DNA from: a virus
Length of the DNA stretch: 64,000 nucleotides
IMG/VR virus record: IMGVR_UViG_3300044691_000113
Location: 5,300 to 69,299 of that record
Direction: 5' to 3' (one strand)
Shown piece by piece: positions 1,185 through 39,272 of this stretch. The position numbers and the translations under genes are program-made. A model generated the notes under the pieces. The model did no database searches, was not told where the DNA came from, and saw nothing but the letters and a program-made list of their open reading frames with translations. Positions within the stretch are counted from its first letter, which is position 1; the number at the start of each line of letters is the position of its first letter.

Positions 1185-1631
1185 TCACGGTCGGAGTTGT
1201 CGAACGAAGTGAATAAACTTCTCCGTCACATCGGTAAAGCCGCACCGCTCCACCGTGCCGCGCATAATCTTCGCAAGTCTCGACGGCACCGCTACCCGTG
1301 CAAGGCGTATCTTTCTCGATACTAGAAAGCTGCCCAGCGTCGGAACCAGCGCCTCGAGCGAGTTCATGCCCTGCTTATTCAGGCCGATCTTTCTCAGATA
1401 AGCTTCGAACTCGATGTAGAGTCCGTCGACGATAATCCCGTCGAGATTTTCAGCCACCAATGTCAGCACCACGGGGAAGGCGAAGAAGTCGGGACGTTCC
1501 TGCGGTCCCATCATTTGCCCCGCAGCGTCGAGCAGGAAGGTGAGCGCCGGCAAGTCCCTCTCCTCCGCGATCCGCCACGTCAGGCCGTTCGACTCCAGCG
1601 ACCAGTGGCGCCAGTTGTCTACTTCTCCCAC
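1185..1631 (-). CDS. Hypothetical protein, possibly GNAT-like virion assembly factor
   Basis: WRIAEERDLPAL N-terminus and ERCGF C-terminal motif resemble GNAT folds; lies just upstream of ejection genes as in many podoviruses. Confidence 0.5.
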   Translation of the reverse strand: MGEVDNWRHWSLESNGLTWRIAEERDLPALTFLLDAAGQMMGPQERPDFFAFPVVLTLVAENLDGIIVDGLYIEFEAYLRKIGLNKQGMNSLEALVPTLGSFLVSRKIRLARVAVPSRLAKIMRGTVERCGFTDVTEKFIHFVRQLRP

Positions 1632-1993
1632 TCGTCGCCCGCCGCGGCCTTCAATTGCTCAAGTCCGTCTTTCAGCGCATTCACCATGAGCAATCCGCTT
1701 GAGAAAGCTGTCGGGGAGAAGTGCATCGCAAACATGATCGTTCCGTCATCGAAACGGAAGATGCCTGGATTGTCGGGGAAATTTACTGCTGGGTTTTCGA
1801 AGAAGTCCGGTATCGCTCTGTCTTTTTTCCAGAAGATAAAGGCCGCGCTGCGCGCCATGATACTTCCATTGGCTCCTACCATTTGGAAGAAGATGCGACC
1901 TTCCGATCGATAAAGGTGAGCAGGAGAACCTTCCATTACATCTTCGAAACGAATCTGGACGAGTTGGCATTCGCGATCTGTTGGCATACGCAT
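1619..1993 (-). CDS. Hypothetical protein
   Basis: 124-aa ORF co-oriented with and overlapping the next gene. Confidence 0.6.
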   Translation of the reverse strand: MRMPTDRECQLVQIRFEDVMEGSPAHLYRSEGRIFFQMVGANGSIMARSAAFIFWKKDRAIPDFFENPAVNFPDNPGIFRFDDGTIMFAMHFSPTAFSSGLLMVNALKDGLEQLKAAAGDEWEK

Positions 1994-9779: not shown

Positions 9780-11054
9780 TTAGTATCCAGCAGGCTGTTT
9801 ACACCCAAAGACTGAAGACTGACTCTTCGGATTCGAGTTGTAGTAATTCACAGTGTCCACCATAAAACTGGCGGCACCGCTGGTGATCTGCCCGTTGGTT
9901 CCGACCTGCTGGAAAACCTTGCGGCCTTCCGAGGTGAACCAGAACGGCGGAGCGCCCCACTTGATCTTTCCCCACGTCTCAGTGTTGAGATAATCCCAGC
10001 GCTGCATGTGCGCGTGGATGTTCTCGACGACCGTGCAGCCGTTGACGGTGGGATCGCCCTGGAACAGGAGATCGTAACCGTTCGGTGCCTTACCATCGGG
10101 GCGGGTGATGGTCATCATCTGACCGGCAATCGCCTCGTAAGCAGCCTTCTGCCCGGTGTGGGTGTGGATCTTCAGCTTGCCGTTCTTGATGGCCGACAGA
10201 CCGAGCGCCTGCTTGATCTGGTCCATGGGGAGCCGGAGCAAGGGAGGAGTTACGGAACTGTTAGCCGCATTCACGGCATTGCTGATGATGAAGTTGTTGG
10301 TGGCAACCGATCGGTCCAGACCGATGGTGAGACCGGTCGTTGCATTCGAGAGCCAGTAGGGGATGCCGTACACGAAGCTGGGTGCGCCGGAGGCAAGGCC
10401 GGGTACACGCAGGATCGCGCCGGCAGCACCGAACACCGCATCGCAGTTCACGGTCTGTGCTCCGCCGAGGGACTGGGATACGGAAAGGATGTTCGAGGTG
10501 CCGATCAACGTAGTGCCGGTGTAGACATCCACGGGCATGTTCTTCGAGAGCAGCCGCGCTCCGAAGTCGTTGTTGTTGAGGGTGTAGATTTTGTTGGTGG
10601 TGTCGACAGCGGTGACGTTGCCGAGGAAGCCAGTGCCGTCTCCACCGCAGAGGAAGATGTCGCGATAGCGGGCGACCGCATCGATCGAATCGGCCATCTG
10701 CTTCATGACGACGTTGACAGCGGTCTGCTGCGGCTTACCGGCAATCTCCGCCAACTTGGTCCAGCCTACGGGCAGCGCCCATGCGACCGGAGCCATCGTT
10801 CCCTGCTGCCAGGTCGCGGAACCCGGGGTGGGGAAGTTGACTGCGGGATTGTCCAGTGAGATCGCGGAGATAGCTGCCGGGATGCTGTCCTGGAACGTTA
10901 CGCGGTACGTGTGAGCCGACACCATTTCGGCGCGGCCGTTGTCGGCGATCAGAGAGTCGAGAACGGAATCCCGCTCGACGAGAACCTCTGGATTCGCCAT
11001 AACCTGTTCGAGTGCTACTGCGATTGCTCCTACCCCTGCCTGAAGATCGGCCAT
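9780..11054 (-). CDS. Major capsid protein (HK97 fold inferred)
   Basis: 424 aa after scaffold; strong RBS AAGGAGG; GDGTG, GLDRS and C-terminal NYYNSNPKSQS motifs typical of capsid proteins; followed by a UUCG hairpin. Confidence 0.8.
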   Translation of the reverse strand: MADLQAGVGAIAVALEQVMANPEVLVERDSVLDSLIADNGRAEMVSAHTYRVTFQDSIPAAISAISLDNPAVNFPTPGSATWQQGTMAPVAWALPVGWTKLAEIAGKPQQTAVNVVMKQMADSIDAVARYRDIFLCGGDGTGFLGNVTAVDTTNKIYTLNNNDFGARLLSKNMPVDVYTGTTLIGTSNILSVSQSLGGAQTVNCDAVFGAAGAILRVPGLASGAPSFVYGIPYWLSNATTGLTIGLDRSVATNNFIISNAVNAANSSVTPPLLRLPMDQIKQALGLSAIKNGKLKIHTHTGQKAAYEAIAGQMMTITRPDGKAPNGYDLLFQGDPTVNGCTVVENIHAHMQRWDYLNTETWGKIKWGAPPFWFTSEGRKVFQQVGTNGQITSGAASFMVDTVNYYNSNPKSQSSVFGCKQPAGY

Positions 11055-25400: not shown

Positions 25401-27831
25401 TAATAGCTGCAAGGATATTGAACGACGTATCTGCACAGCCAGAGACGATGATGAAATCTTTCGACAGGACTAAGAACGGATCAGTCACCGGGGCGCTGAC
25501 GACGTTCGAGCTGTTTCTGGTAAGCGTGACGCCAGCAGGGGCAACTATTCTCGTTGTGGCGTAGCCCGAAAGAGCCTGTAGCCAACGACCCGCACCGATC
25601 CTTGAATACAAGAGGTGCGTGGCGTCCAGTGCCCCAACGATACGGATAATCTGCCGCCCAGGGAACGTTCCAGTGTACTGATTGGCCCTGATGTCAATCG
25701 CGGTGCAGGAGTGCGAACCCTGTACGACATAGGCCTGGGCTTGGTGGTTGTAGCGTAGGGCTACCGTTATGGTCTGAGTCCCGCTAGAAAATCCACCGAC
25801 CGAGACTACCCTTGCACTCTCCATATAATCGCGGTCGGCATAGCAGACGGTGCTGGCCGTGGTGATTGCGGAGGTGAGACCGGTGACCACAACGGTCGCG
25901 TTCGTCGTCGCGCCATAGTACTGGGTAGGAACGGTTACAGGCGAAGCTACCCGTCCGATGTTGTCGGGAGTCAGGGTAAGCGTGTCGATTGTCAGTTGGC
26001 CCGCATCGGCAACCCCCGGATCACCTGAGAAAACTATCTTGAATAGGGCGCTTCCCTTGCTGGCATCGACGAGGGGCGTTCCATCTCCCGGAAAGGGCAC
26101 GTTACTAATCAGCGTCCCTTGTATCAGCGTGGCTCCCGCCGCAAGAGTGGAGTTAGCCGAGATGGTCATCGGGGTAAGGTTCTGGCCGATCTGATTCCTT
26201 ACCGTATTGAAGCCTTCAGCACCGCCGTCCGGGTTTCCCCTGTTGTTGGTGACAACGTTCTGCCAGATGTGGCTGTCGCCAACCCCCATTCCTTGATGCT
26301 GAATGGTGAATTCGTTGACAATGCCGCGCCGCATGAATTCGAAGGCCCACTGAAAGGCTACGTAGCTGTCAGGTCCGCCGCCGTCAAATCCGTTCTTCCC
26401 CGACCCGGTCATTTCAAAATCGCGTAGGTAGGTGAAGACGTTATTTCCCGCACCCGAAGCCTGCGCCTGCTGATTCGATACCCAGCGGTCGTCGCTAACA
26501 ATGCCGCTCGGCGATCCTACATTGGTGTTATAAGCGTAGCTGCCAATACCATTCTGCCGGTAGTCATAGAACTTAGTATTGTTGGCAAATGGTGCTGGGC
26601 AGCCGATGGCATCACGCCAGTTGGGGCCGACGCAGGTACTATTCCCGCTGAGGATGCCTTCAACTTGGGCGTAATCCGGGCCAGCCACAACGATGCTTCC
26701 CGCTACCGCCAAAGCATTCGCTATGCCATCGTTCGAGGTTGGTGTGGTCTGATTGAGGAAGGCATTCTTGAGGCCGTCGTTACTCAGAGATTTGAAGTTG
26801 CCCACGCTGTCGAAGGTGGCGTTAGAGGCTGATCCCGCTCCACCTCCGGCGCTGAAGATTGCCTGGTTGACCGTGCCGGGTATCGTGCTTCCACCTCCGC
26901 CCGGTCCGCATTGCCCGTTGACCTGCAACACGTTGGTTCCAACTGTGCAAGGGGTTCCACTCCATATCGTCCCAGCGAGCGAGACGTAGTCACCCAAGAC
27001 TGCCGCGCGAGAGGTGAGCGGCGTGATGCCGAAGACAGGAGCATTGCTTGGCAGGGTTGCGCCAGCTCCGCATCCGCCCGTCGAGCAGAGCGTAGTCAGT
27101 GGAACAAGACCGATCTGCGTAGGAGGGTTGCCGGGTACGGGTCCAGCCCATACGAAGCCAGGGGTGATGTACGCCTGATTCGCGTCGATGCAGAAGGTTG
27201 TCCCGTTGATCGCGGAGGCTATCGCCTGGTCGTTTCCACGCTGGCAGCTCGGGTTGAGCGAGGGATTCTGTGTCCAGTAGACAGCGGCGTCGCCCTGCAG
27301 CCTCGAGCACACCCATGGGTAAGGATCGGAGGCGAGGGTGTTGTTATACATCGCACTCGGATTGCAGTTGAGCGTGGGGATACCGGCGCCAGAGATGGTG
27401 ATGCCAGCGGGAGCGATGTAGCCGTCGTAGGAGAAGGACGCCGTGGTGATGTTGGTCAGCGGGAAGGTGAAGTAGGTTGTGCCGCCGCCCGTGCTCTGTG
27501 TCTGGATCCGGTAGCGTGTGTTCGCCGGAGCCATCGTCAAAGGGTTGGCGATCGTCGGGGGAAAGCCGCCGATGTTCTGCACTGCTCCCTTGACGACTGG
27601 GAGAGTGAAGGGCGCACTCGTCGGAGATCCACCCTGGGGCGTGTAGGTAACCGGGGTGTTTGACGTGTCGGTGACGGTGAAGATGAGTTGGCCGGTGAGC
27701 GGTTGCCGGTTGTTATCGACGACCTTGTTGCCGCTGACGGGGATGGTCGCCTGCGCATGGAGCGCAGGGGGGATGGCGAGGAGGACGGCCGCGAGCAGTC
27801 CGAAGGTAAGCCAAAAGTTGATCCTGCGCAA
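22486..27831 (-). CDS. Very long fibre/spike-like protein with Sec-type signal peptide
   Basis: TTG 27831 behind GGAGG; RRINFWLTFGLLAAVLLAIPPALHA-Q; G/T/S/A-rich fibre motifs (VSSFNTRAGAV, ADFPTLNQSTTGNAATAT, ATATSINKVTITAP). Confidence 0.7.
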   Translation of the reverse strand: MRRINFWLTFGLLAAVLLAIPPALHAQATIPVSGNKVVDNNRQPLTGQLIFTVTDTSNTPVTYTPQGGSPTSAPFTLPVVKGAVQNIGGFPPTIANPLTMAPANTRYRIQTQSTGGGTTYFTFPLTNITTASFSYDGYIAPAGITISGAGIPTLNCNPSAMYNNTLASDPYPWVCSRLQGDAAVYWTQNPSLNPSCQRGNDQAIASAINGTTFCIDANQAYITPGFVWAGPVPGNPPTQIGLVPLTTLCSTGGCGAGATLPSNAPVFGITPLTSRAAVLGDYVSLAGTIWSGTPCTVGTNVLQVNGQCGPGGGGSTIPGTVNQAIFSAGGGAGSASNATFDSVGNFKSLSNDGLKNAFLNQTTPTSNDGIANALAVAGSIVVAGPDYAQVEGILSGNSTCVGPNWRDAIGCPAPFANNTKFYDYRQNGIGSYAYNTNVGSPSGIVSDDRWVSNQQAQASGAGNNVFTYLRDFEMTGSGKNGFDGGGPDSYVAFQWAFEFMRRGIVNEFTIQHQGMGVGDSHIWQNVVTNNRGNPDGGAEGFNTVRNQIGQNLTPMTISANSTLAAGATLIQGTLISNVPFPGDGTPLVDASKGSALFKIVFSGDPGVADAGQLTIDTLTLTPDNIGRVASPVTVPTQYYGATTNATVVVTGLTSAITTASTVCYADRDYMESARVVSVGGFSSGTQTITVALRYNHQAQAYVVQGSHSCTAIDIRANQYTGTFPGRQIIRIVGALDATHLLYSRIGAGRWLQALSGYATTRIVAPAGVTLTRNSSNVVSAPVTDPFLVLSKDFIIVSGCADTSFNILAAITSDNGSTVTWNTAGPAATTTCTNAVEIQSQLNGLSVREAQLFPAVEIVNTVDPVTFANNFNLTVEPNTNFQVTAGDHLEDQVYSEVFQGLDHNLINFQSQVSPATPDVIHFDQLGGQIPEGTTWYRVAFQDTPNNYLGHGGTKPVANVMLDMTNNEAPFLTIFQNIPTPDTAFVTFQGCSFGCADARSNFLLFRVPTQNGTYTETIHQDTGKMERVTGNSTNTLTVREEPADHIIILQTTGSGYIQTITTSDANSVVGGAGGTFSTIDQTSSATTTTIHGVSGDSHVIQTVSGWSSDVPITVPSCSGCGGGGGGGVISIDTLTGAFTFSGPGVSHTGNAYTFSGSGTGVSSFNTRAGAVVPVSGDYSFSLLSGNLGTTQGPSGLTGILKDTAGTLSAAVAADFPTLNQSTTGNAATATLATNSSAVGGVALAGLCQTGGSGCPAAGTGNTTSTSLVTNTIPKANGANSIINSGLTDDGTKLTYTGSGTANGWLIPEGTAITGVASSAALYPDSTLHRWMQNPNNIGALMIPGIATAGTAADCVKLAANGIDLVDAGAACGSGGSTAFSALTGSTNSTAAMVVGTGASLGVSGSGTINATSVNGNTFPASAGFTSGGVFYASSTSAAATSALLTNNVVMLGGGAGGAPKNSLATDSGTAFTYTGTAGFAGKYFVGTGTTAGFLFLPQGTTSTGDANCTTTTICIQAPAAVTSYSVTLAGAAATGFPFYTNSSSAIIETIVGTSGSGNVCLVTSCTMVTPTLGAATATSINKVTITAPTTSATLTLITGSTLTLNGAFNTQFTGSANATFTLPGASDTLAGIGATQTLTGKTLTSPVINGATGTGGTYTGAEQAPTLKGNAIGSFTAATIAAGAAAGTSPTIACTASHLCGPTNGTVTLTAGTATTTGALLTVTAGTAHTNLPDCTASVVLTASPFTALPYSWSYTTSVWTLNVGTAPTASTGYTITYTCPGI

Positions 27832-27853
27832 AGTACGCCTCCGCTGTAACGCG

Positions 27854-27885
27854 GCGTACCCTACCATTTTTAGGATTCTTGGCTA
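27854..27885 (-). promoter_or_regulatory. Late promoter motif, copy 5
   Basis: Minus strand TAGCCA-N16-TAGGGT with the shared 18-mer. Confidence 0.8.
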
Positions 27886-28193
27886 GTGTCCTCGAGGAGC
27901 TTGTTCATCATCATGTGGCCGAACGCTTTCGTGCTGGCAGCGAGGATGGAGTCGAACTTGCGTCCTTCGTTGATACGTTGCTCCATCATCCTGTGGAGGA
28001 CATGGCGGGCGAGTCCATCGACACCTTCTTTGAAGAGAACCATTCGGCCATTGGCATAGTACAGGCATGGTTGGGACGTATCGTTGTCGTCAGGGAGTCC
28101 GAGCTGCTCGCGGATGCGGACCTTCAGCCGCATCTCGAACATCATCATCAGGTACGGCGGGAGACCCTCAAGGTGCTTGAACTCAGATTGCAA
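27870..28193 (-). CDS. Hypothetical protein
   Basis: TTG start behind GGAGG; 107 aa. Confidence 0.65.
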   Translation of the reverse strand: MQSEFKHLEGLPPYLMMMFEMRLKVRIREQLGLPDDNDTSQPCLYYANGRMVLFKEGVDGLARHVLHRMMEQRINEGRKFDSILAASTKAFGHMMMNKLLEDTSQES

Positions 28194-28563
28194 GTGCTGC
28201 CTCCGTTCCCGGGAAAGGCTTCAGGATCATGCCGCCGCGGTCCCTTGGTGGCCAGAGGCGTCCGTCTGGGACGTCATGGTGCAGCACGACTGGCATCCCT
28301 TCGAACTCCACAGCCGCCCCAGCGAGCATCTCCTGGCGCATGACCTCCTCGCGCGCGTGAAGCCGTTCCTCTGTCCAATAGTCGCCCTTGGGCATCTGGT
28401 TGGTAATGAGGACAAGGCTGATGATGAAGTCGAAGACGATTGGACCGCACTCCACCTTGTCGGGCCAGAAGCCAGCGAAGCGCATGAGGGAGATGTCATT
28501 CCGCAGGTCCATCACTCGTATCTGCGGATCCTCGGCCATTCTGTTTTCGCTGTTTTCGCTCAT
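28183..28563 (-). CDS. Small protein resembling an isolated capsid A-domain segment
   Basis: PDKVECGPIVFDFIISL...AVEFEGMPVVLHHDVPDGRLW; start uncertain (28563 or 28539). Confidence 0.5.
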   Translation of the reverse strand: MSENSENRMAEDPQIRVMDLRNDISLMRFAGFWPDKVECGPIVFDFIISLVLITNQMPKGDYWTEERLHAREEVMRQEMLAGAAVEFEGMPVVLHHDVPDGRLWPPRDRGGMILKPFPGTEAALAI

Positions 28564-28972
28564 GGTTTTGCTCGGCCTTCTTCCTATCGATCTTCTGTAA
28601 CCGCTCCTGCTCCCGTCGCTCCACGTAGCGCCGGTCAACATCCAGAGGATCGTCCGGTCCCCGATACACCGTGCTGCGAGTCGTGCCCTTGGGACGCCCT
28701 GTCGACTTGCCGTTCGCATTGTTGCGCTTCCGCTTCTCGCGGGTGTGTTCGTTGATGGTGTCTACGCTGGTATCGCCGATAGGTGCCTCGGCGCGCGGGT
28801 CCGAGGTGAAGGGTAGCGGCCGACTGGTCATCCCTCTACACTGAGCGGTGGTGACGAGGTCCTCATCGCACCATGGACACTTTGCTGCGAGGTCGGGACG
28901 ATCTGGCGTTCCTGTCTCGAAGGTTCCACAGGACGGGCAATCGAACCGCGTCAGGTAGTAGGGGTTGAGCAT
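28496..28972 (-). CDS. Zinc-ribbon protein with basic tail (candidate regulator)
   Basis: CPSC...CPWC; KSTGRPKG AT-hook-like; K/R-rich C-terminus. Confidence 0.6.
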   Translation of the reverse strand: MLNPYYLTRFDCPSCGTFETGTPDRPDLAAKCPWCDEDLVTTAQCRGMTSRPLPFTSDPRAEAPIGDTSVDTINEHTREKRKRNNANGKSTGRPKGTTRSTVYRGPDDPLDVDRRYVERREQERLQKIDRKKAEQNHERKQRKQNGRGSADTSDGPAE

Positions 28973-29248
28973 CTAGTCGGTTTGGTTGTCCCAGAAGAGT
29001 TGAACGGCCAGGGCCTTCTCCTCGATCGGCAGCTTCGCCCAGAACGCATCAAGTTGGTTCTCGTCGACCATGAGGGGCACGAGGAAGCGGGTAACGTCTT
29101 CGTTGACGGAGGCATCCGGGGCTTGCTTCTTGGGCTTCTTTGGGCCTTTGGGCTTCTTGACTCCGGCGTGGAGGTCGCAGAACTTGCGCGCACCCTTCGC
29201 CTCAAACGTCTCTTCGCAGTGCTCGGACGCACATTTCTTAGTAGCCAT
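28973..29248 (-). CDS. Small zinc-finger protein
   Basis: CASEHC...FCDLH; RBS GAAGGAG. Confidence 0.65.
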   Translation of the reverse strand: MATKKCASEHCEETFEAKGARKFCDLHAGVKKPKGPKKPKKQAPDASVNEDVTRFLVPLMVDENQLDAFWAKLPIEEKALAVQLFWDNQTD

Positions 29249-29507
29249 GGGGCTCCTTCATTTGGGAGAAGTAAGATGAGCGTTCTATGCCCAGGTAGGT
29301 TCCGGTGGTGCCACTCGCGTGCCAATACAGGACACCCCACGGCTCCGGGCTGATGTACTCGGTGGTGTACTCGGCGACGGGAACTAGGCTGCCGAACGGC
29401 TCAATGGGGATGATTTCCGTCTGGGCGAGGAAGATTTTGGGAGCAATGCCGACGCCTACAACCGCCGTGGCCAGTGATCGCAGGAATGATCGTCTACCGA
29501 GCACCAT
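29238..29507 (-). CDS. Twin-arginine-signal protein carrying a capsid-like peptide
   Basis: GRRSFLRSLATAVVGVGIAP; C-terminal WGVLYWHASGTTGTYLGIERS aligns ungapped to this phage's capsid protein. Confidence 0.65.
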   Translation of the reverse strand: MVLGRRSFLRSLATAVVGVGIAPKIFLAQTEIIPIEPFGSLVPVAEYTTEYISPEPWGVLYWHASGTTGTYLGIERSSYFSQMKEPHGY

Positions 29508-29572
29508 CGCAGGAGTCCCTCAATGCTTCAGGCTCGCCCGCGCTATCTCGGGGAATGGTTGGTTGCGGAGGG

Positions 29573-29926
29573 TTAGGCTTTCGGCCCAGTCCCCACGTTG
29601 GTCATCACAACTGACGCCTTAGCTGTCGCTTCCACGTCTAACTCGCCGGTTGGCTTGTAACGCGGACTCACAAAGGCGATGGTGTCTTTCGGCATTGCCT
29701 CGGAGACGGCGAGGTCACCGTAGAAGCGTTGGCCATCGAATCCGCCCTCGGATAGTGTTCTCCGTTGTGTAGGCCATTCGACCTTCTCGAACTCCCATGG
29801 CGGCTTGGCGAACGATTCAGCAAGGTGTTGAACGGTCGTCTGGCTTAGGGGCGTTCCGGTGCCGTACTTCTCCCACGCCGCCAGGATGCGCTCTCGCCAA
29901 ACGTCTTCACCTGGCCATTCCATCAT
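29573..29926 (-). CDS. Small protein with capsid-like C-terminal motif
   Basis: EGGFDGQRFYGDLAVSEAMPKDTIAFVSPRY; start uncertain (29926 or 29962). Confidence 0.5.
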   Translation of the reverse strand: MMEWPGEDVWRERILAAWEKYGTGTPLSQTTVQHLAESFAKPPWEFEKVEWPTQRRTLSEGGFDGQRFYGDLAVSEAMPKDTIAFVSPRYKPTGELDVEATAKASVVMTNVGTGPKA

Positions 29927-29955
29927 TTCGCCCTCGTTTCTCGCAGGGTAGCACG

Positions 29956-30021
29956 GTTGCACCGTATCCAGTGCAACATTATTTGTCGTAACTCTGACGA
30001 CAAGTTGCGACAGCCAAACGG
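29956..30021 (-). promoter_or_regulatory. Promoter/operator region of the attP-proximal cluster
   Basis: Palindromes GTTGCAC-N8-GTGCAAC and TTGTCGT-N7-ACGACAA; minus strand TTGTCG-N16-TAATGT and TGcTACCCT; shares two 12-mers with 41076-41124. Confidence 0.5.
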
Positions 30022-30240
30022 GGGAGAGTTTGAGGGAGAATTAGCAAAGCCACATACGCCAAACCCTGATAAATGCTGGAAAATGCTGGAACGTCGTAAC
30101 ACTCTATGTCATTGAAAACACAAAATACAGAATGGCTACGAACCAGTAGGTCGGGCGTTCGAATCGCTCCGGGCGCACCATTTAGGATCAATAGCTTACC
30201 TCATGTATGCAGAATTATCGAGGGAGGATTTGAGGGAGGA
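30021..30240. repeat. attP arm-type direct repeats flanking the core
   Basis: Paired GAGGGAG-like repeats with 12-nt period at 30021-30040 and 30220-30240; tandem AAATGCTGGA at 30071-30090; IHF-like GATCAATAGCTTA at 30186-30198. Confidence 0.65.
30133..30180 (+). other. attP core: 3' half of tRNA-Arg(ACG)
   Basis: TGG-CTACGAA-CCA anticodon arm remnant, T-arm GGGCG-TTCGAAT-CGCTC, acceptor 3' strand ending CCA; no 5' half; about 0.9 kb from integrase 3' end. Confidence 0.9.
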
Positions 30241-30833
30241 CTAATTTCTAAAGCACAATGTGGGAACTCCCTCTTCTTCGCCCTACGCACGCTCTCTGCC
30301 GCTTCCTGGGCGAGATCCTTGGATGGATACTTCTGTTCGTCTCCCAGAGTGATGGATCTGTACGTATTGCCGTCTTTATATCGAAAAACCCACACATCTG
30401 GTCCTTTTTTCCTCTCCTTCAATGTCACGCTTCCGCATTGACGGCGGCGGTTACGGGGGCGCTTTTTGGTGTGTGGTGTGGGAATGAAGCCGAAGTAGCC
30501 GAAACGCTCTCCGAGAGTCTTCACTTCTCCAAGATCGATCATCCCTGAGTCGGCTTCCCGGTGATGGTTGGGGCAAAGCGGTATCAGGTTATTCAAGTCA
30601 TTGATTTCATCGATCATCGCTGTTCCAGGGAAGGCCATGACTCCACGCTTGTGTGCAATGTCAACGTGGCGGTCGTAACCACAGAAGAAGCAGCAGAGTG
30701 GCAGGCCCGAGGTCTCGAACTTGTTGCGCGCACCTTTTTGAATCATTGTGCGTGCCCGCTGGTATCCCATGCGAGTGAAGACTGCCGCTCGGGTTTCTCC
30801 GAGACCGTGGGTTGCTGTACGCTTGAGATGCAT
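30201..30833 (-). CDS. HNH endonuclease fused to an integrase arm-binding-like domain
   Basis: Start re-called at ATG 30833 behind GGAG; CFFCGY..VDIAH...NLIPLCPNHHREAD; C-terminal GSVTLKERKKGPDVWVFRYKDGNTYRSITLG..KY resembles the integrase N-terminus. Confidence 0.8.
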   Translation of the reverse strand: MHLKRTATHGLGETRAAVFTRMGYQRARTMIQKGARNKFETSGLPLCCFFCGYDRHVDIAHKRGVMAFPGTAMIDEINDLNNLIPLCPNHHREADSGMIDLGEVKTLGERFGYFGFIPTPHTKKRPRNRRRQCGSVTLKERKKGPDVWVFRYKDGNTYRSITLGDEQKYPSKDLAQEAAESVRRAKKREFPHCALEISPPSNPPSIILHT

Positions 30834-30921
30834 GGGTGTTCTCCGTTGACGCGGATGAGCTTTGTGCGGAAGTCTCTGAACAGACGACCGCAACCATGCT
30901 TTCATTCTACACTTCGGCCTT

Positions 30922-31089
30922 CTATCTCTGATTGCTCAGGCAGAAATTATTGCGTTCCTCTTCGTTGCAGAACCAACCGTAGGCGCCATCTTTGACCATG
31001 CGAGTCTTCGAGACGATCGAGCCACACTTCACGCACCGCGCAACCTCGGAATAGTAAGCAGGAAATAGCCAGCGAAGAAATCTCTTCAT
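30922..31089 (-). CDS. 55-aa Cys-containing hypothetical protein (below ORF-track cutoff)
   Basis: ATGA overlap with int stop; MKRFLRWLFPAYYSEVARCVKCG...WFCNEE..C. Confidence 0.55.
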   Translation of the reverse strand: MKRFLRWLFPAYYSEVARCVKCGSIVSKTRMVKDGAYGWFCNEEERNNFCLSNQR

Positions 31090-32327
31090 GCTCTTTTCCT
31101 CAGCATCTCCACAACCCTGGCGTTGGCACCGCGCACCGTCTCCGCCTTCGAACTGCCGCCGTACTTCAGGGTTTGCCGGATGTCTTCATGGCGCATGAGC
31201 GCCCGTTGCTCCTCGAGGGTGAGCTTCTCCTGGTCCATCATCGCCCGGTAGGTGTGGCGGAAGTCGTGCCAACCAAGGTTGGGGATGCCGATCAGCTTGC
31301 CCGCAGGGACGAGATGGTCCTGCTGCAACGTTCCACCCCAGAACGGACGGCCGGTAACGATGTTACAGAAAAGCCAGCCATTGACTGGGGTGGGGATGCC
31401 GTCTCGGGTCTCACCTTCGATAGTCTGCTCCTCGCGCCATAGCTCGAGGATGGCGTAGAGGTCTTCGTGGATTGGCAACTCCTCCTCAGATCCTTCGGTT
31501 TTCGTGTCGCCGGTGTTCTGACCCACTTGGGAGCGGTGGATGCTCATGACGCGTCGTACCATATTGAAGTCTTCCCAGCGAAGGCCGAGTATCTCACTGA
31601 CGCGCAGGCCCAACAGCATGGCGATGAAGATCATGGTGCGAACGTGGGGAGCCAGTTCTACCACCGTGGTCAGGGCAATCCACTGGTCATGGGTGATGAT
31701 GTTCGCTGGGCGAACCTTCTTCCTGCGCCCCTTCACCTTGACCGCGGTGACTGGATTGCGTTGCATGGGGATAAGTTGGTGCTTCATCGCGTACTCGAAG
31801 ACAAGGTGTACGAACGCCTTGATGTGGAGCTTCGTCTTCTTGCTGGCTGGACGGGCAGGTTTGCCAGGGATCGTCTTGCCGGGGATGAGCTTGCCCTTTG
31901 CCATGCGGTCTGGGATAACCCTGTCGGGCTTGGCCAGGACTTCGTAGCCGTTGACCCAGTTCTCGATCGCGAGGATGTCCTTGACCATGTCGTCGACGCG
32001 CCACTCGCCCCAGTCTGCCCGTAACCGCTTCATGAACCCGAGGTATGTCTTGGCTGTCTTCGGGCGTATGTCCTTCGGCTTGTCCCACTCCAGTTTGAGG
32101 CGATCGCAGAGGCCGGAGACGTTGATGCCGGCGATGCGCTCGTTGATCTCGAGGAGTTGGCGGTCGGCTTCCTTGCGCGCGGCGCCCTTGGTTCGGAACT
32201 TGTCGACGGTGCCAATCTCTTTGGAGCGGTATCTACCGTTCTCTTCGAAGCGGAGAACCCACAGGTCAGGGCCCTTGGCGCGGGGTTTGCGGGTGACAGT
32301 GCCTTGCTGGTAGCTGCTGCGCTTCAT
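31086..32327 (-). CDS. int: Tyrosine integrase
   Basis: GLRVSEILGLRWED, TKT, HDFRHTY, LMRHEDIRQTLKY catalytic motifs; adjacent attP. Confidence 0.95.
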   Translation of the reverse strand: MKRSSYQQGTVTRKPRAKGPDLWVLRFEENGRYRSKEIGTVDKFRTKGAARKEADRQLLEINERIAGINVSGLCDRLKLEWDKPKDIRPKTAKTYLGFMKRLRADWGEWRVDDMVKDILAIENWVNGYEVLAKPDRVIPDRMAKGKLIPGKTIPGKPARPASKKTKLHIKAFVHLVFEYAMKHQLIPMQRNPVTAVKVKGRRKKVRPANIITHDQWIALTTVVELAPHVRTMIFIAMLLGLRVSEILGLRWEDFNMVRRVMSIHRSQVGQNTGDTKTEGSEEELPIHEDLYAILELWREEQTIEGETRDGIPTPVNGWLFCNIVTGRPFWGGTLQQDHLVPAGKLIGIPNLGWHDFRHTYRAMMDQEKLTLEEQRALMRHEDIRQTLKYGGSSKAETVRGANARVVEMLRKRA

Positions 32328-32366
32328 CTACGTCCTCGATGTCTAAGGCTCGGAAGCAAGTCTACC

Positions 32367-32534
32367 TCAGCAGTACCCACTCTCGCGCATCGTTACATCG
32401 TCGGGGTCTTCCCAACCCATAAAGTCGAGGTCGTCGCAGTCGTCTGGCATCTGGCAGTCGCAGTAGCAACCAGGTCCAGTGCAGGCGCTACACATCCCGA
32501 GGGCGCAGGCGGGGCAGACGACATCCCGACTCAC
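32367..32534 (-). CDS. Cys-rich microprotein
   Basis: GTG overlapping xis stop; CPACALGMCSACTGPGCYCDC. Confidence 0.5.
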   Translation of the reverse strand: MSRDVVCPACALGMCSACTGPGCYCDCQMPDDCDDLDFMGWEDPDDVTMRESGYC

Positions 32535-32755
32535 TGTGCCCGTCCGCTCTTGATGAACTCGTCGACATCGGACAGCCGGCAGCGCCAGTAGGTTTTCTTG
32601 CCGAACTTGTAGGCTTTTGCCGGTATCTTGCCCGCGATGGCGAGGCGCCGGGTGGTCTGGTAGCCGAAGCCGATGTGCTTGGCGACGACGCGCAGGTCCA
32701 CCCACTTCTCAGCCTCGGCGGTGGCGACTTGGGGTTCGACGAGTTGCAGGCTCAT
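32531..32755 (-). CDS. xis: Excisionase-like winged HTH protein
   Basis: Start at ATG 32755; WVDLRVVAKHIG...TTRRLAIAGKIPA...WRCRLSDVDEFI; upstream of int. Confidence 0.75.
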   Translation of the reverse strand: MSLQLVEPQVATAEAEKWVDLRVVAKHIGFGYQTTRRLAIAGKIPAKAYKFGKKTYWRCRLSDVDEFIKSGRAQ

Positions 32756-32988
32756 GGTTTGCTCCTCTTCATCGGGCCGAAGCACTCTTCGTAGCCCTTT
32801 ATCAACTTGGGGTCCGTCTTCATAATCTCGTCCCGCTTGCATCGGTTGGTGTCTTCCTTCCCGTGGCAGACTCCGAAGGGACACTTGCAGAGTGGCAATA
32901 GGTCCATCAGGCCGCCGTCCGCGAGGCGCTTCAGCTCGGCGTCGGGCTGGGGGTTGCGCTTTAGGAACTCTTCGAACTCCTTGCTCAT
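32752..32988 (-). CDS. Hypothetical protein
   Basis: 78 aa, ATGA-coupled to both neighbours. Confidence 0.6.
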   Translation of the reverse strand: MSKEFEEFLKRNPQPDAELKRLADGGLMDLLPLCKCPFGVCHGKEDTNRCKRDEIMKTDPKLIKGYEECFGPMKRSKP

Positions 32989-33185
32989 CGTTCGCTCCTG
33001 TGCCTGGTGCCGGTGGTGACCTTGACGGCTTCCGCTTTGTGGTCGCTGCAGTAGCCAATGTTGTGCTGGGTGGGGTGACGGTAGAGCGCAGGCTTACCAC
33101 AGTGGCAGGTCTCCGGATCCTGGCGGCGTACCAGTGGCTGATCCCCGCGGTCGTTCCATGGGACAATCGGCGCTATCGTTCTCAT
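32985..33185 (-). CDS. Small zinc-finger protein
   Basis: ATG 33185; CHCGKPA...GYCSDH. Confidence 0.6.
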   Translation of the reverse strand: MRTIAPIVPWNDRGDQPLVRRQDPETCHCGKPALYRHPTQHNIGYCSDHKAEAVKVTTGTRHRSER

Positions 33186-37413: not shown

Positions 37414-37696
37414 TGGTCCCCTCCGGCATCGTCTCTGTCCACACCGGGAGAACTATCCAGTCCACTTCGATCAGCTTGGGGCTGTTGTGCGCTTTGTCGA
37501 GCCAGCCGATAACGAACAGGGCTTTGCCCCCAACCTGTCGCGAATCGTTCATGTGCTTCGCCTGCCGTGCGGCAGAGCGCTTTCTGGCGTAGATATACAT
37601 CCGCTGTGTGCCCACACCCTCCCAAACGAACCGGGGCTTACTCCAGCCCTCGCGCATCGCCATCACCGCGTAATTCTTGAGGCCTCGACTATCCAA
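37406..37696 (-). CDS. Hypothetical protein
   Basis: TTG start behind GGAGG; 96 aa. Confidence 0.55.
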   Translation of the reverse strand: MDSRGLKNYAVMAMREGWSKPRFVWEGVGTQRMYIYARKRSAARQAKHMNDSRQVGGKALFVIGWLDKAHNSPKLIEVDWIVLPVWTETMPEGTNG

Positions 37697-38009
37697 CGGT
37701 TGCCTCCGGCGCCCGCCTGGGTGGAATCATTGGCATGGGGCGTTCCTTACCGTTGGCGGTGAAGACTGCCTCGGGGATCATGCGGCCCACAGCCAGCAAC
37801 TCGGCATAGCGGATCAGGAGGCCGAGGCTTACTTCGAGCGCCGCGGCAAATTTCTCGAGCTGCGCGACGGTGGGCACGATGTAGCCGCACTCGATCTTAG
37901 TCATGTACTGGCGCGGGCAATTCATCCGCGTGGCGAGCTGCGACTGGTAAAGGTGCCGGTCGTGCCTCACGTTGCGGATGGCTTGGCCGATAGAAGCATC
38001 AACTCTCAT
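37689..38009 (-). CDS. XRE-family HTH regulator
   Basis: IGQAIRNVR..LYQSQLATRMNCPRQYMTKIECG..PT..LEKFAAALEV. Confidence 0.85.
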   Translation of the reverse strand: MRVDASIGQAIRNVRHDRHLYQSQLATRMNCPRQYMTKIECGYIVPTVAQLEKFAAALEVSLGLLIRYAELLAVGRMIPEAVFTANGKERPMPMIPPRRAPEATVG

Positions 38010-38242
38010 CCGTGCTTCTCCTTCATCTCAGCCACGCGCCTTGCGTCCTTGAGCCGGTGGGCGTGGGCTACCTCTACGCCGGATTGGTTGGTCTTGGGGA
38101 CTGCGACGGCCTTGGTGCGCCCTATCCAGCGGACAGAATGGCAGGCGATGCCAGGAGGGGCGTTGCAGGTAGGACAGTGGGCTGTGCGTGCGAATTGCTC
38201 ATCTGCGGGGGTGTGGCGCTGGGCCGGGACGATCTCAGGCAT
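38006..38242 (-). CDS. Small zinc-finger protein
   Basis: CPTCNAPPGIAC...HAHR; RBS AAGGAG. Confidence 0.7.
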   Translation of the reverse strand: MPEIVPAQRHTPADEQFARTAHCPTCNAPPGIACHSVRWIGRTKAVAVPKTNQSGVEVAHAHRLKDARRVAEMKEKHG

Positions 38243-38552: not shown

Positions 38553-38636
38553 ATATGCGTATGAAGCATGACACCAAATTAGCCGATATGTCAATATCGC
38601 ATGGAGTGACAAAGGCTGTTCACGCATAATGAAAGG
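38553..38636. promoter_or_regulatory. Lysis-lysogeny switch: divergent promoters and operators
   Basis: Leftward TTGACA-N18-CATGCT; rightward CATAAT 6 nt before the cI ATG (leaderless-like); ATATGC-N7-GCAT operator-like sites at 38553-38571 and 38586-38604, half-match at 38611-38629. Confidence 0.7.
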
Positions 38637-39272
38637 ATGAATGATATGGGAGCACGACTGAAACAGCTTCGTACATCAGTGCATATGAGTCAGGGCGAAC
38701 TCGCTCTGGCAACAGGACTCGAGCAGTCCACCATCTCGCGTATTGAGCGGGGTGAAATTGAACTTGTCTCCCCGGCCGCAAAAAAAATATCGGCGGCTCT
38801 GGGAATTTCCTTGGTGGGACTGCTCGGTGTGGCTCATAATGTATCCCCTGCCCCTCTTGGAACAAGACGACTCCCCGTGCTTGATTACGTCCAGGCTGCG
38901 AAGCGTGCAAGAGGTCAGGTAGGCCCGCAGGATTTGACAATGAAGCGATTCGCTGTGACCGATTTATCGCAATCTGCCAATAGTTATGCTCTAAACATCG
39001 AGGGTGACTCCATGGAGCCGGAGTTCGACGCCGGCGATCTGGTGGTCATCGACCCCGATGTTCCGTACCAGCCAGGAGACTACGTTGTAGCTGTTGGAAC
39101 GGAAGGCAAGGCCACCTTCGGAAAATATAAGGCGACCGGCGTCAACAGTGAGGGTGCGGACACGTTCGAAATCGTCCCACTCAATCCCTATTACGCACCG
39201 CTGAGGTCCGGCCTTCTCAGCCTGACGATCGGTGGCGTGATGGTGGAGCACCGCAAGTTCCGCCGCAGGTAA
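38637..39272 (+). CDS. cI: CI-like repressor (HTH plus S24 peptidase)
   Basis: XRE HTH; IEGDSMEPEFDAGDLVVIDP; ATFGKY; PLNPYY. Confidence 0.92.
   Translation: MNDMGARLKQLRTSVHMSQGELALATGLEQSTISRIERGEIELVSPAAKKISAALGISLVGLLGVAHNVSPAPLGTRRLPVLDYVQAAKRARGQVGPQDLTMKRFAVTDLSQSANSYALNIEGDSMEPEFDAGDLVVIDPDVPYQPGDYVVAVGTEGKATFGKYKATGVNSEGADTFEIVPLNPYYAPLRSGLLSLTIGGVMVEHRKFRRR

Follow-up and report, generated by a model that had tools for sequence, protein, structure and literature searches.

A small gene of a temperate soil phage that appears to join a Tat-type export signal to patches of a major capsid protein

Introduction

Signals of the twin-arginine translocation (Tat) pathway have the consensus S/T-R-R-x-F-L-K, or more broadly Z-R-R-x-hydrophobic-hydrophobic, according to PMC13673990. 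The same source describes a pathway that tolerates small unfolded substrates without exposed hydrophobic stretches; unfolded substrates with exposed hydrophobic regions stall late in translocation and cause growth defects. Here, we describe a phage open reading frame (ORF), TAT89, that carries a signal of this type in front of capsid-like patches. It lies in a window of 64,000 nucleotides, bases 5300 to 69299 of the 69,299-bp virus record IMGVR_UViG_3300044691_000113, which has direct terminal repeats and was judged complete. Like the Tat signals described by the TIGR01409 model, the N-terminus of TAT89 combines G-R-R-S-F-L-R, a mild h-region of 12 residues rich in G, A, T, and V, and a Pro-Lys c-region. 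Its cargo differs from that of Tat substrates, being an apparently unstructured peptide of ∼60 residues made of capsid fragments, without an A-x-A site, and not an enzyme or cofactor protein.

Single features of TAT89 are also found in other phage systems. The Gol peptide, a short stretch of the major capsid protein of phage T4, triggers a host defence. TAT89 is similar in that a capsid-type stretch is a candidate for an effect apart from shell building; Gol, however, lies within the capsid protein itself, whereas in TAT89 the stretch has a gene to itself, together with an export signal. Imm and Sp of T4, gp15 of HK97, and the lipoprotein Ltp are small exported phage proteins with a role in superinfection. 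To our knowledge, neither these nor the T4 antiholin RI are Tat-targeted or derived from structural proteins. All of them are small, signal-bearing, and non-essential, and act in the envelope on the material of a second virion, whereas for TAT89 a role in exclusion is a proposal. RI in particular is presented in PMC8385771 as a small exported phage protein dealing with superinfection. A different precedent is Ccm of the satellite SaPIbov5, a capsid-protein homologue with which the satellite redirects the capsid assembly of its helper phage, as stated in PMC8569155. In both cases a mobile element carries a capsid derivative distinct from its main shell, which in the case of Ccm is used in conflict between elements. 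Unlike Ccm, which is a full-length HK97-fold protein that is cytoplasmic and co-assembles, TAT89 consists of patches of 13 to 33 residues, cannot form the fold, and has an export signal. In the full-text literature, judged mainly from abstracts, no Tat-signal protein made of capsid fragments was found to be described.

Results and Discussion

TAT89 and its family

TAT89 is very probably a real accessory gene that encodes a Tat signal followed by about 60 residues of a probably unstructured mosaic of HK97-type capsid patches, and that belongs to a rare family in which the cargo varies (Table 1). A word-indexed search returned two close homologues, P0002 and P0003, which are 64 to 65% identical, lie on short contigs, and form a close trio with TAT89 (P0001). 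P0090, P0091, and P0092 came from an exhaustive search with a profile among 1.84 billion representatives, and the only addition from a large-library profile search was the fragmentary P0093. The family is thus rare, with seven proteins in a library of 5.8 billion clusters plus four genome-resident cases. Nothing was found in viral-contig searches, either with the close-trio alignment or with P0091 and P0090 as single proteins, and the 50,697 phage records of INPHARED held no match to TAT89 or to the capsid protein of its phage. Among contigs from metagenomes and genomes, the trio alignment matched only the signal peptides of cellular proteins (an uncharacterised one of 300 residues and one of 367 residues). 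Such cellular proteins, from metagenome-assembled genomes (MAGs) of Gammaproteobacteria and Bacteroidota, carry near-identical signals of the GVGIAPKIF type.

The N-terminus of TAT89 contains the broader Tat motif as G4-R5-R6-S7-F8-L9. In six members of the family, R5, R6, F8, L9, A15, P23, K24, W57, and G58 are all invariant. An alignment of eight members, including three that were found later in phage genomes, keeps both arginines, the phenylalanine, the h-region alanine, and the c-region proline in 8/8, at 26 to 34% identity to its first row. Six of the 11 ORFs tested reach the TIGR01409 cut-off of 16.7 bits (P0002, 18.0; P0091, 18.6; P0092, 19.6; P0093, 22.1; tat132, 18.0; and tat97, 18.4); P0003 scores 15.9 bits, and P0090, tat90, and tat179 are unlisted. 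With RRxFL, a short mild h-region, and a c-region proline with a basic residue, the N-terminus of TAT89 reads as a genuine Tat-type signal that is conserved as such. At the level of sequence, this bears out the Tat-like N-terminus proposed in a first-pass annotation of this DNA.

Within the close trio, the first 31 residues are identical save one T/A change and the last 21 are nearly identical, while the middle cannot be aligned. The mature parts across the family are acidic (isoelectric point [pI] of 4.6 to 5.4) and mildly hydrophilic, without membrane-spanning stretches; for TAT89 the pI is 4.6 and the grand average of hydropathy is −0.26. The ESM Atlas model of TAT89 has a predicted local distance difference test score (pLDDT) of 0.32, so that TAT89 by itself probably lacks structure. 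Because of this low value, the structural neighbours offered by ESM Atlas (template modeling scores of 0.30 to 0.56) were discarded, and the ESM Atlas feature search with TAT89 gave no usable match. The GC content at third codon positions (GC3) of TAT89 is 0.71; other genes of the phage range from 0.58 to 0.79.

Capsid-like patches of the mature part

The 424-residue capsid ORF of the window matches no Pfam, PHROG, or NCBIfam family. A search for its homologues found 86. Its AlphaFold2 model, built on 76 homologues, has a mean pLDDT of 77.9, and Foldseek matched it to the solved capsids of SU10, A-1(L), and HK97 with E values from 9e-11 to 6e-7. BLASTP aligned residues 57 to 77 of TAT89 to capsid residues 229 to 249 without gaps, at 9/21 identical and 16/21 positive positions (E of 7e-5 as a single comparison), which reproduces exactly the alignment that had first drawn attention to this ORF. 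The DNA of the matched stretches was described at that stage as clearly diverged, and it is indeed identical at 37/63 positions, and at 8/21 third codon positions.

The significance of this alignment was explored by shuffling. Shuffling the whole ORF reached its ungapped score of 59 in 1/5000 trials, and shuffling the mature part in 0/5000; by this check, which the first-pass annotation had proposed, such a score is rare. When 823 short frames of the window were all compared by BLASTP with 71 long ones, the pair had an E value of 0.007, and five other pairs, mostly non-coding, scored as well or better. For this reason the alignment is borderline when taken alone. In a six-frame scan of 1,604 frames with a capsid profile, TAT89 ranked third (E of 0.013). 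Comparison of the close trio with the 76 capsids by hhalign gave a sole match, of residues 55 to 78 to capsid residues 227 to 250, with a probability of 91.3% and an E value of 9.4e-7. In this match the capsid residues paired with G58, G69, and G73 do not vary among the 76 sequences, and the column of R76 is at least 90% conserved. Given the profile-profile match and the shuffle tests on the homologues described below, the likeness is more than chance, and we take it to be real homology and a trait of the family. The residues YW..TTG..G.RS, which were expected to be conserved if the match was meaningful, are kept in part: in the three close homologues G58, Y61, G69, G73, R76, and S77 are invariant and W62 is kept in 2/3, while T67 and T68 are lost.

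Two further likenesses to the capsid are weaker (Table 1). The patch that resembles capsid residues 354 to 368 precedes the one that resembles residues 229 to 252 and is therefore out of capsid order. The likeness of the tails (SSYFSQMKEPHGY in TAT89 and SSVFGCKQPAGY in the capsid) is placed at the extreme end of both proteins, and for P0003 the BLASTP match of the tail to the capsid tail is stronger (8/13, E of 0.003). The complete HK97 fold, with N-arm, E-loop, spine helix, P domain, and A domain, is not present in TAT89, of which only residues 55 to 78 and the tail align. TAT89 is thus derived from the HK97 capsid family and not a member of it. A complex prediction for the capsid and mature TAT89 gave a score of 0.00, which counts neither for nor against an interaction.

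Table 1. Features of the window (positions in the 64,000-nucleotide stretch)
Feature	Position	Strand	Basis or remark
Second capsid-patch ORF, 124 aa, no signal peptide	1619..1993	-	BLASTP and capsid profile
HK97-fold major capsid protein, 424 aa	9780..11054	-	AlphaFold2 and Foldseek
Capsid C-terminal tail, residues 412-424	9783-9821	-	
Capsid residues 227-250	10305-10376	-	
ORF of 1793 aa	22486-27867	-	N-terminal signal-like stretch
Gene downstream of TAT89, 91 aa	28973..29248	-	Start codon 29246-29248 overlaps last TAT89 codons; AAGGAG Shine-Dalgarno 29253-29258 inside TAT89
TAT89 ORF, 89 aa	29238..29507	-	ATG start; sequence begins MVLGRRSFLRSLATAVVGVGIAPKIFLAQ
TAT89 C-terminal tail, residues 76-89 (RSSYFSQMKEPHGY)	29241..29282	-	Versus capsid C-terminus 412-424 (QSSVFGCKQPAGY); BLASTP 7/14, E 1.1
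Presence/absence cassette, ∼270 bp	29250..29519	.	Contigs of relatives join across
Capsid-like patch, TAT89 residues 55-78	29274..29345	-	Versus capsid 227-250; motif GIPYW..N..TG...G.DRS; contains 29277-29339
Weak second patch, TAT89 residues 50-64 (EYISPEPWG...)	29316..29360	-	Versus capsid 354-368 (DYLNTETWG...); BLASTP 6/15, E 0.013
Putative Tat-type signal, TAT89 residues 1-29	29421..29507	-	n-region MVLG-RR-SFL, h-region SLATAVVGVGIA, c-region PKIFLAQ; cleavage site uncertain
RRSFL of TAT89 signal	29481-29495	-	
TAT89 ribosome-binding site GAGGGA	29516-29521	-	8 nt upstream of ORF; within right-hand cassette border
attP core, tRNA gene 3' end (T-arm, acceptor stem, CCA)	30141..30183	+	Sequence; soil-contig depth and loose ends
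HNH-endonuclease ORF (234 aa) and zinc-ribbon-like ORF (55 aa)	30201-31089	-	Between integrase and attP
Tyrosine integrase, 413 aa	31086..32327	-	Beside attP; 50% identical over 410 aa to G002 ORF
Divergent ORF	37692-38027	-	Similar to the next over 61 residues
Divergent ORF	38610-39269	+	
ORF of >2287 aa	56966-64000	-	Reaches genome end

The capsid profile matches 6/7 members of the family, at differing capsid positions. The best match is that of P0091 (profile positions 359 to 383, 28.7 bits), followed by P0090 (10 to 40 and 351 to 375, 14.5 and 3.5 bits), P0092 (210 to 251, 11.1 bits), TAT89 (231 to 252, 10.9 bits), P0003 (91 to 105 and 230 to 255, 6.6 and 10.8 bits), and P0002 (230 to 252, 8.6 bits). 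P0093, of which the mature part has only 37 residues, gave no capsid-profile match. Composition-preserving shuffles of the six matching mature parts never reached the observed scores (0/1000, with a top shuffle of 4.3 bits versus 9.4 to 28.9 observed). The regions represented across the members are the N-arm, residues 91 to 108, 229 to 252, and 352 to 383, and the C-terminal tail. The first-pass annotation had spoken of a capsid epitope; the likeness to the capsid is real, but this term is too narrow for a mature part that is a mosaic in which the patches differ between members.

The arrangement of the patches is informative as to how these proteins may have been put together. P0003 matches the capsid of the window three times in capsid order (94 to 108, 228 to 253, and 412 to 424), and P0091 aligns to capsid residues 355 to 425 with a single gap of 34 residues. 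The lead-in [DE][YF][IL]....WG, which is like capsid residues 354 to 362, continues into either 363 to 383 or 231 to 252 and, having two alternative continuations, shows that the order of the patches is not always that of the capsid. Where patches meet, very short motifs are shared (WG/YG before x-x-x-W, and RS-S/V), as would be expected if microhomologies had guided deletions or joining. Conservation in the capsid is highest around residues 361 to 400, which we take to be the P-domain hairpin of the HK97 fold, and this stretch is the one carried by P0091, P0090, tat97, and tat90.

Recurrence in other phage genomes

A profile of the small protein did not find the gene in any of four close relatives of the phage (0/4; G001 to G004), where it matched only inside the capsid genes, at about residues 352 to 379, a further sign of the likeness to the capsid, and it had no match in G005. 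A scan of 27 further related records with the capsid profile revealed two that hold a second small capsid-like ORF, both starting with MNRRNF[LF]K. For the first, tat97 of G018, the best non-self match among 1,484 frames of its own genome is its own capsid (14/25 identical, E of 2.2e-6), and the same is true of the second, tat90 of G022, among 541 frames (E of 9e-8). A pattern scan added an ORF of 99 residues of the same design in G034, a 48%-complete record.

The signal of P0092 led to an unrelated 67-kb phage with terminal repeats, G006, which has no capsid of the family found in the TAT89 phage. Here the best non-self match of tat132 (132 residues) among 983 frames is an ORF of 307 residues, a Mu gpT-like major head protein (PF10124 at 26.8 bits, with a cut-off of 20.1, and PHROG head families). 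Two patches of tat132 match this head protein, at 14/32 (E of 3e-6) and 19/58 identical residues (E of 4e-4). In Smith-Waterman shuffles of all four genome-resident cases the observed score was reached in 0/1000, with z values of 6.8 to 14.5.

In total, capsid patches follow a Tat-type signal in ten ORFs, and two capsid families are represented. The pairing of an export signal with a mimic of the virus's own shell protein is thus a consistent design, and its recurrence suggests, from sequence comparison, that capsid look-alike peptides may be sent deliberately to the cell envelope. Further cases could be sought among small signal-bearing phage ORFs for which the best match in their own genome is the capsid, although the rarity of the family means that its ecological weight may be small. 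Read by eye from the sequence, tat90 sits downstream of a DnaB-like helicase and tat132 is near an SNF2-like helicase ORF, and both neighbourhoods look like early-type modules.

Some other loci of these records were also noted. Directly downstream of tat97 (L117:921-1460, minus strand), G018 has an ORF of 179 residues with a paralogous Tat-type N-terminus (18/31 identical, with RVWPFRT[FY]SF shared) and no recognisable capsid cargo; a terminase-like cargo that had been considered for it was dropped, since BLASTP in its own genome gave nothing better than an E of 0.66. Locus L129 was not counted, because no plus-strand ORF of at least 50 residues lies at the match. In G034, an ORF of 434 residues (L131:700-2004, minus strand) was matched by the capsid profile at an E of 0.016, but it is not capsid-like and was not counted either; it has a cysteine cluster reminiscent of Cas4/RecB-type nucleases, and its LDNPEIQFPQP is close to the capsid motif LDNPAVNFPTPG, maybe by chance. 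The capsid gene of G016 (L115; G016:C1:5695-7181) is in two pieces, matching profile positions 3 to 384 and 379 to 425 with a TGA inside the second match, which could reflect a frameshift, a sequencing error, or an insertion.

The TAT89 gene as a cassette

Contigs of four soil runs from one study were compared with positions 27800 to 32400. Six joints, found in 3/4 runs, lead from 29207-29255 directly to 29504-29532 with 1 to 37 other letters between them, removing the ORF and little else; joints with less than 95% likeness or a short side can be spurious, and the best-covered joint (X4) has a side of 20 letters. Because the six joints agree on the borders of the ORF, we accept the reading of the TAT89 gene as an accessory cassette that is present or absent among relatives. 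A contig of 225 nt that covers part of TAT89, with 39 differences in 222 nt, indicates that variants bearing the ORF occur in the same study.

The cassette has a ribosome-binding site on one side and, on the other, the start codon of the gene that follows, which encodes 91 residues and matches no Pfam or PHROG family. The last codons of TAT89 (AAG GAG CCC CAT GGC TAC TAA) contain the AAGGAG site and the ATG of this gene. Since its start codon overlaps the end of TAT89, the two are suggested to be translationally coupled. TAT89 appears to ride inside an existing operon. The neighbours of 91, 129, and 107 residues have no tblastn match in G001 to G004. In being present or absent among relatives, near the phage attachment site (attP), and fitted precisely between a ribosome-binding site and the next start codon, TAT89 resembles the phage morons. 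Unlike them, it has no promoter or terminator of its own that could be found in 27800-31200, where no sigma-70-like sites and 4 terminator-like sites (3.8 expected) were seen with a consensus that may not fit the presumed host phylum.

A second ORF with capsid patches, of 124 residues and without a signal peptide, is present elsewhere in the window (Table 1). Its residues 22 to 53 match capsid residues 367 to 398 (15/32 identical, E of 1e-7) and its residues 65 to 86 match capsid residues 67 to 87 (11/22, E of 5e-4), so that the order is swapped relative to the capsid. It is the second-ranked match to the capsid profile among 1,604 frames, and the best that is not a capsid, with 0/1000 shuffles reaching its score. 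Its GC3 is 0.58. The genes that flank it are adjacent to each other in G001 to G004, from which it is taken to be an inserted cassette. New ORFs are thus seeded by capsid fragments in this phage, whether or not a signal is attached.

Possible roles of TAT89

TAT89 would be a kind of exported phage accessory protein, with a modest chance that it is something more. The role that we put forward, tentatively and as a possibility short of probable, is that of an exported capsid mimic for superinfection exclusion or sensing in the envelope. Pieces of a capsid gene would have been joined behind a signal and trimmed at the tiny shared motifs WG/YG and RS-S/V, and in a phage with a different type of capsid this would have happened at least once more. 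The Tat pathway would then export the peptide, or tether it to the periplasmic face of the inner membrane, where it would display conserved surface motifs of the capsid. In the envelope, a capsid would normally be contacted only by proteins that an infecting virion carries inside it or ejects. The peptide could bind such internal proteins of superinfecting related phages, the entry of which would be blocked or sensed, with expression occurring early or from the prophage. Export is taken at face value in this proposal because nothing in the family is more conserved than the signal. The mature parts, acidic and mildly hydrophilic and lacking membrane-spanning stretches, would be compatible with what the Tat pathway tolerates. 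If TAT89 is exported, it would point to an unexplored place where capsid-type surfaces meet the cell envelope, for which the entry of a second phage is the prime candidate.

Several observations weigh against this proposal. TAT89 itself scores 15.3 bits with TIGR01409, which is 1.4 below the cut-off, and a Pfam scan returned no family for it, the Tat model included, at an E of 1 or less. Its candidate peptidase site, F-L-A/Q, is not the canonical A-x-A, for which reason the exported peptide may stay tethered to the membrane. The 124-residue ORF has no signal, so new ORFs can retain capsid fragments even when these are not exported. The conservation of the MKEPHGY tail may be partly at the DNA level, because of the signals of the next gene, and need not reflect mimicry. 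The idea that the cargo tracks the phage's own capsid within the main family is not supported, given that this capsid is outscored by 8, 7, and 37 of 139 for G018, G022, and the TAT89 patch (G000), respectively. Lastly, the binding of ejected internal proteins by capsid patches is pure inference.

The peptide could instead act before export, in the cytoplasm, by docking its patches on the phage's own capsid subunits or those of a competitor, at the interfaces used in assembly, while the Tat signal drags the complex to the translocase. The capsid would be withdrawn from assembly, or translocation would be arrested with damage to the membrane, as a form of assembly interference or abortive infection. 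We hold this to be rather unlikely, even though capsid motifs naturally pair with other capsid subunits, which are cytoplasmic, and P0091, P0090, tat97, and tat90 carry the most conserved stretch of the capsid. The stalling of Tat by hydrophobic substrates, with its harm to growth, would agree with such an effect, as would hitchhiker co-translocation, which is cited in the reference list of PMC13673990. The best single match of the TAT89 patch is to a distant capsid clade (12/24 identical, with a run of 8 identical residues, versus 9/21 for the own capsid), which would suit the targeting of other phages and might point to an origin of the patch from that clade, but the profile of that clade gives TAT89 8.4 bits versus 10.9 bits for that of its own family. 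Moreover, an assembly poison needs no export signal, yet the signal is what is most conserved, and a phage with such a poison risks its own assembly. If action before export is nevertheless the case, the Tat pathway would be used as an effector in phage conflict. About equally doubtful is that the patches reflect ancestry only, with capsid fragments having served as raw material for a protein that now has a role unrelated to capsids (envelope modification, lysis timing, or something else), or that is near-neutral filler behind a signal. This would account for the 124-residue ORF of the same phage, for the freely varying middle of the protein with its insertions and deletions among close homologues, for the loss of different patches in different members, for the predicted lack of structure of TAT89, and for P0093 and the 179-residue ORF of G018, which have the signal without recognisable capsid cargo. 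It fits less well with patches that are 43 to 56% identical to capsids, invariant glycines included, when the signals are only 26 to 34% identical to the first aligned row, and with a protein patch that persists although third codon positions are saturated (8/21). It is also at odds with G006, a phage with another capsid family that carries the patches of that family, since this means that the association arose more than once or is maintained. Whatever its role, TAT89 is a clear example of a new gene built from fragments of a structural gene.

Major capsid proteins often trigger bacterial abortive-infection systems, and a peptide that imitates the capsid segments seen by a host sensor might serve as an anti-defence decoy, occupying or removing the sensor before the late expression of the capsid. 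The early-type neighbourhoods in G006 and G022, the usual place of counter-defence genes, and the patchy distribution of an accessory gene would agree with this, but the capsid sensors known to us are cytoplasmic, so that an export signal would remove the decoy from them, and no defence gene was identified nearby. Searching the full-text literature on capsid decoys or mimics in anti-defence, judged from the beginnings of abstracts, brought up general reviews only. We consider a decoy improbable. That TAT89 is a non-gene or a generic small Tat-like ORF with a 9/21 match picked out by selection would agree with the window, where the pair reaches an E of only 0.007 with five of the 823 by 71 frame pairs as good, and from its Tat score under the cut-off. 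Against this stand the profile-profile probability of 91.3%, the 0/1000 shuffles in six members and in four genome-resident cases, the three other genomes in which the Tat ORF, self matches aside, is most similar to the own capsid, and the conservation of reading frame and signal in the homologues. As far as sequence analysis reaches, these tests at the level of the family refute a coincidence, which is left as highly improbable. A broader reading, which we see as quite unlikely, is that phages repeatedly build capsid-on-Tat peptides as a weapon or sensor against one another, the cargo recognising capsid-associated proteins of a rival and the Tat signal acting as effector. The targets would be either cytoplasmic, as free subunits of the capsid, or periplasmic, as internal proteins after their ejection. 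The effect could lie in export, in mislocalisation, or in a translocase arrested at the cost of the membrane potential. If true, this would be a modular device of recognition plus targeting derived from a structural gene, with the cargo swapped for each capsid family, and a self/non-self system at the protein level not described before.

Other features of the window

In the left half of the window the genes are mostly on the minus strand. The phage is temperate, as judged from an integrase-like ORF beside a tRNA 3' fragment and from soil contigs with an attP-like pattern (Table 1), and several of its relatives are proviruses by class. At attP the depth of the soil contigs peaks at 30110 to 30263, with loose ends at 30133 to 30141 before the core and at 30180 to 30184 behind it. 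The tRNA fragment was called neither by ARAGORN, which found no whole tRNA, nor by Rfam, and an Rfam scan of 27000 to 33000 gave one sub-threshold match only. The integrase is named from the sequence of the ORF and from an N-terminus in the neighbouring ORF that is like an Arm-DNA-binding domain. TAT89 is the second gene to the left of attP and would be at one end of the prophage in a lysogen.

The host is probably an acidobacterium, because homologues of the capsid are found in MAGs of Acidobacteriaceae and the sequencing runs that hold the locus are soil metagenomes. The four capsid homologues from named organisms comprise three from MAGs of this family (Edaphobacter, Terracidiphilus, and Acidobacteriaceae) and one labelled Patescibacteria.

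Between the integrase and attP lie two ORFs, for an HNH endonuclease and a zinc-ribbon-like protein. The C-terminal part of the HNH ORF resembles the arm-binding N-terminal domain of an integrase, and contigs of relatives join 30180 to 31086, so that this region looks like an inserted homing-type cassette with a copied part of the integrase. Two ORFs of the window are very large, one of them with a signal-like N-terminal stretch and the other reaching the end of the genome. The relative G018 has a frame of 4,978 residues. None of the very large ORFs is annotated by PHROGs; they could encode internal or ejected virion proteins or fibres. Finally, two divergent ORFs share a similarity of 61 residues (E of 5e-4) and are possibly paralogous regulators at a switch region.

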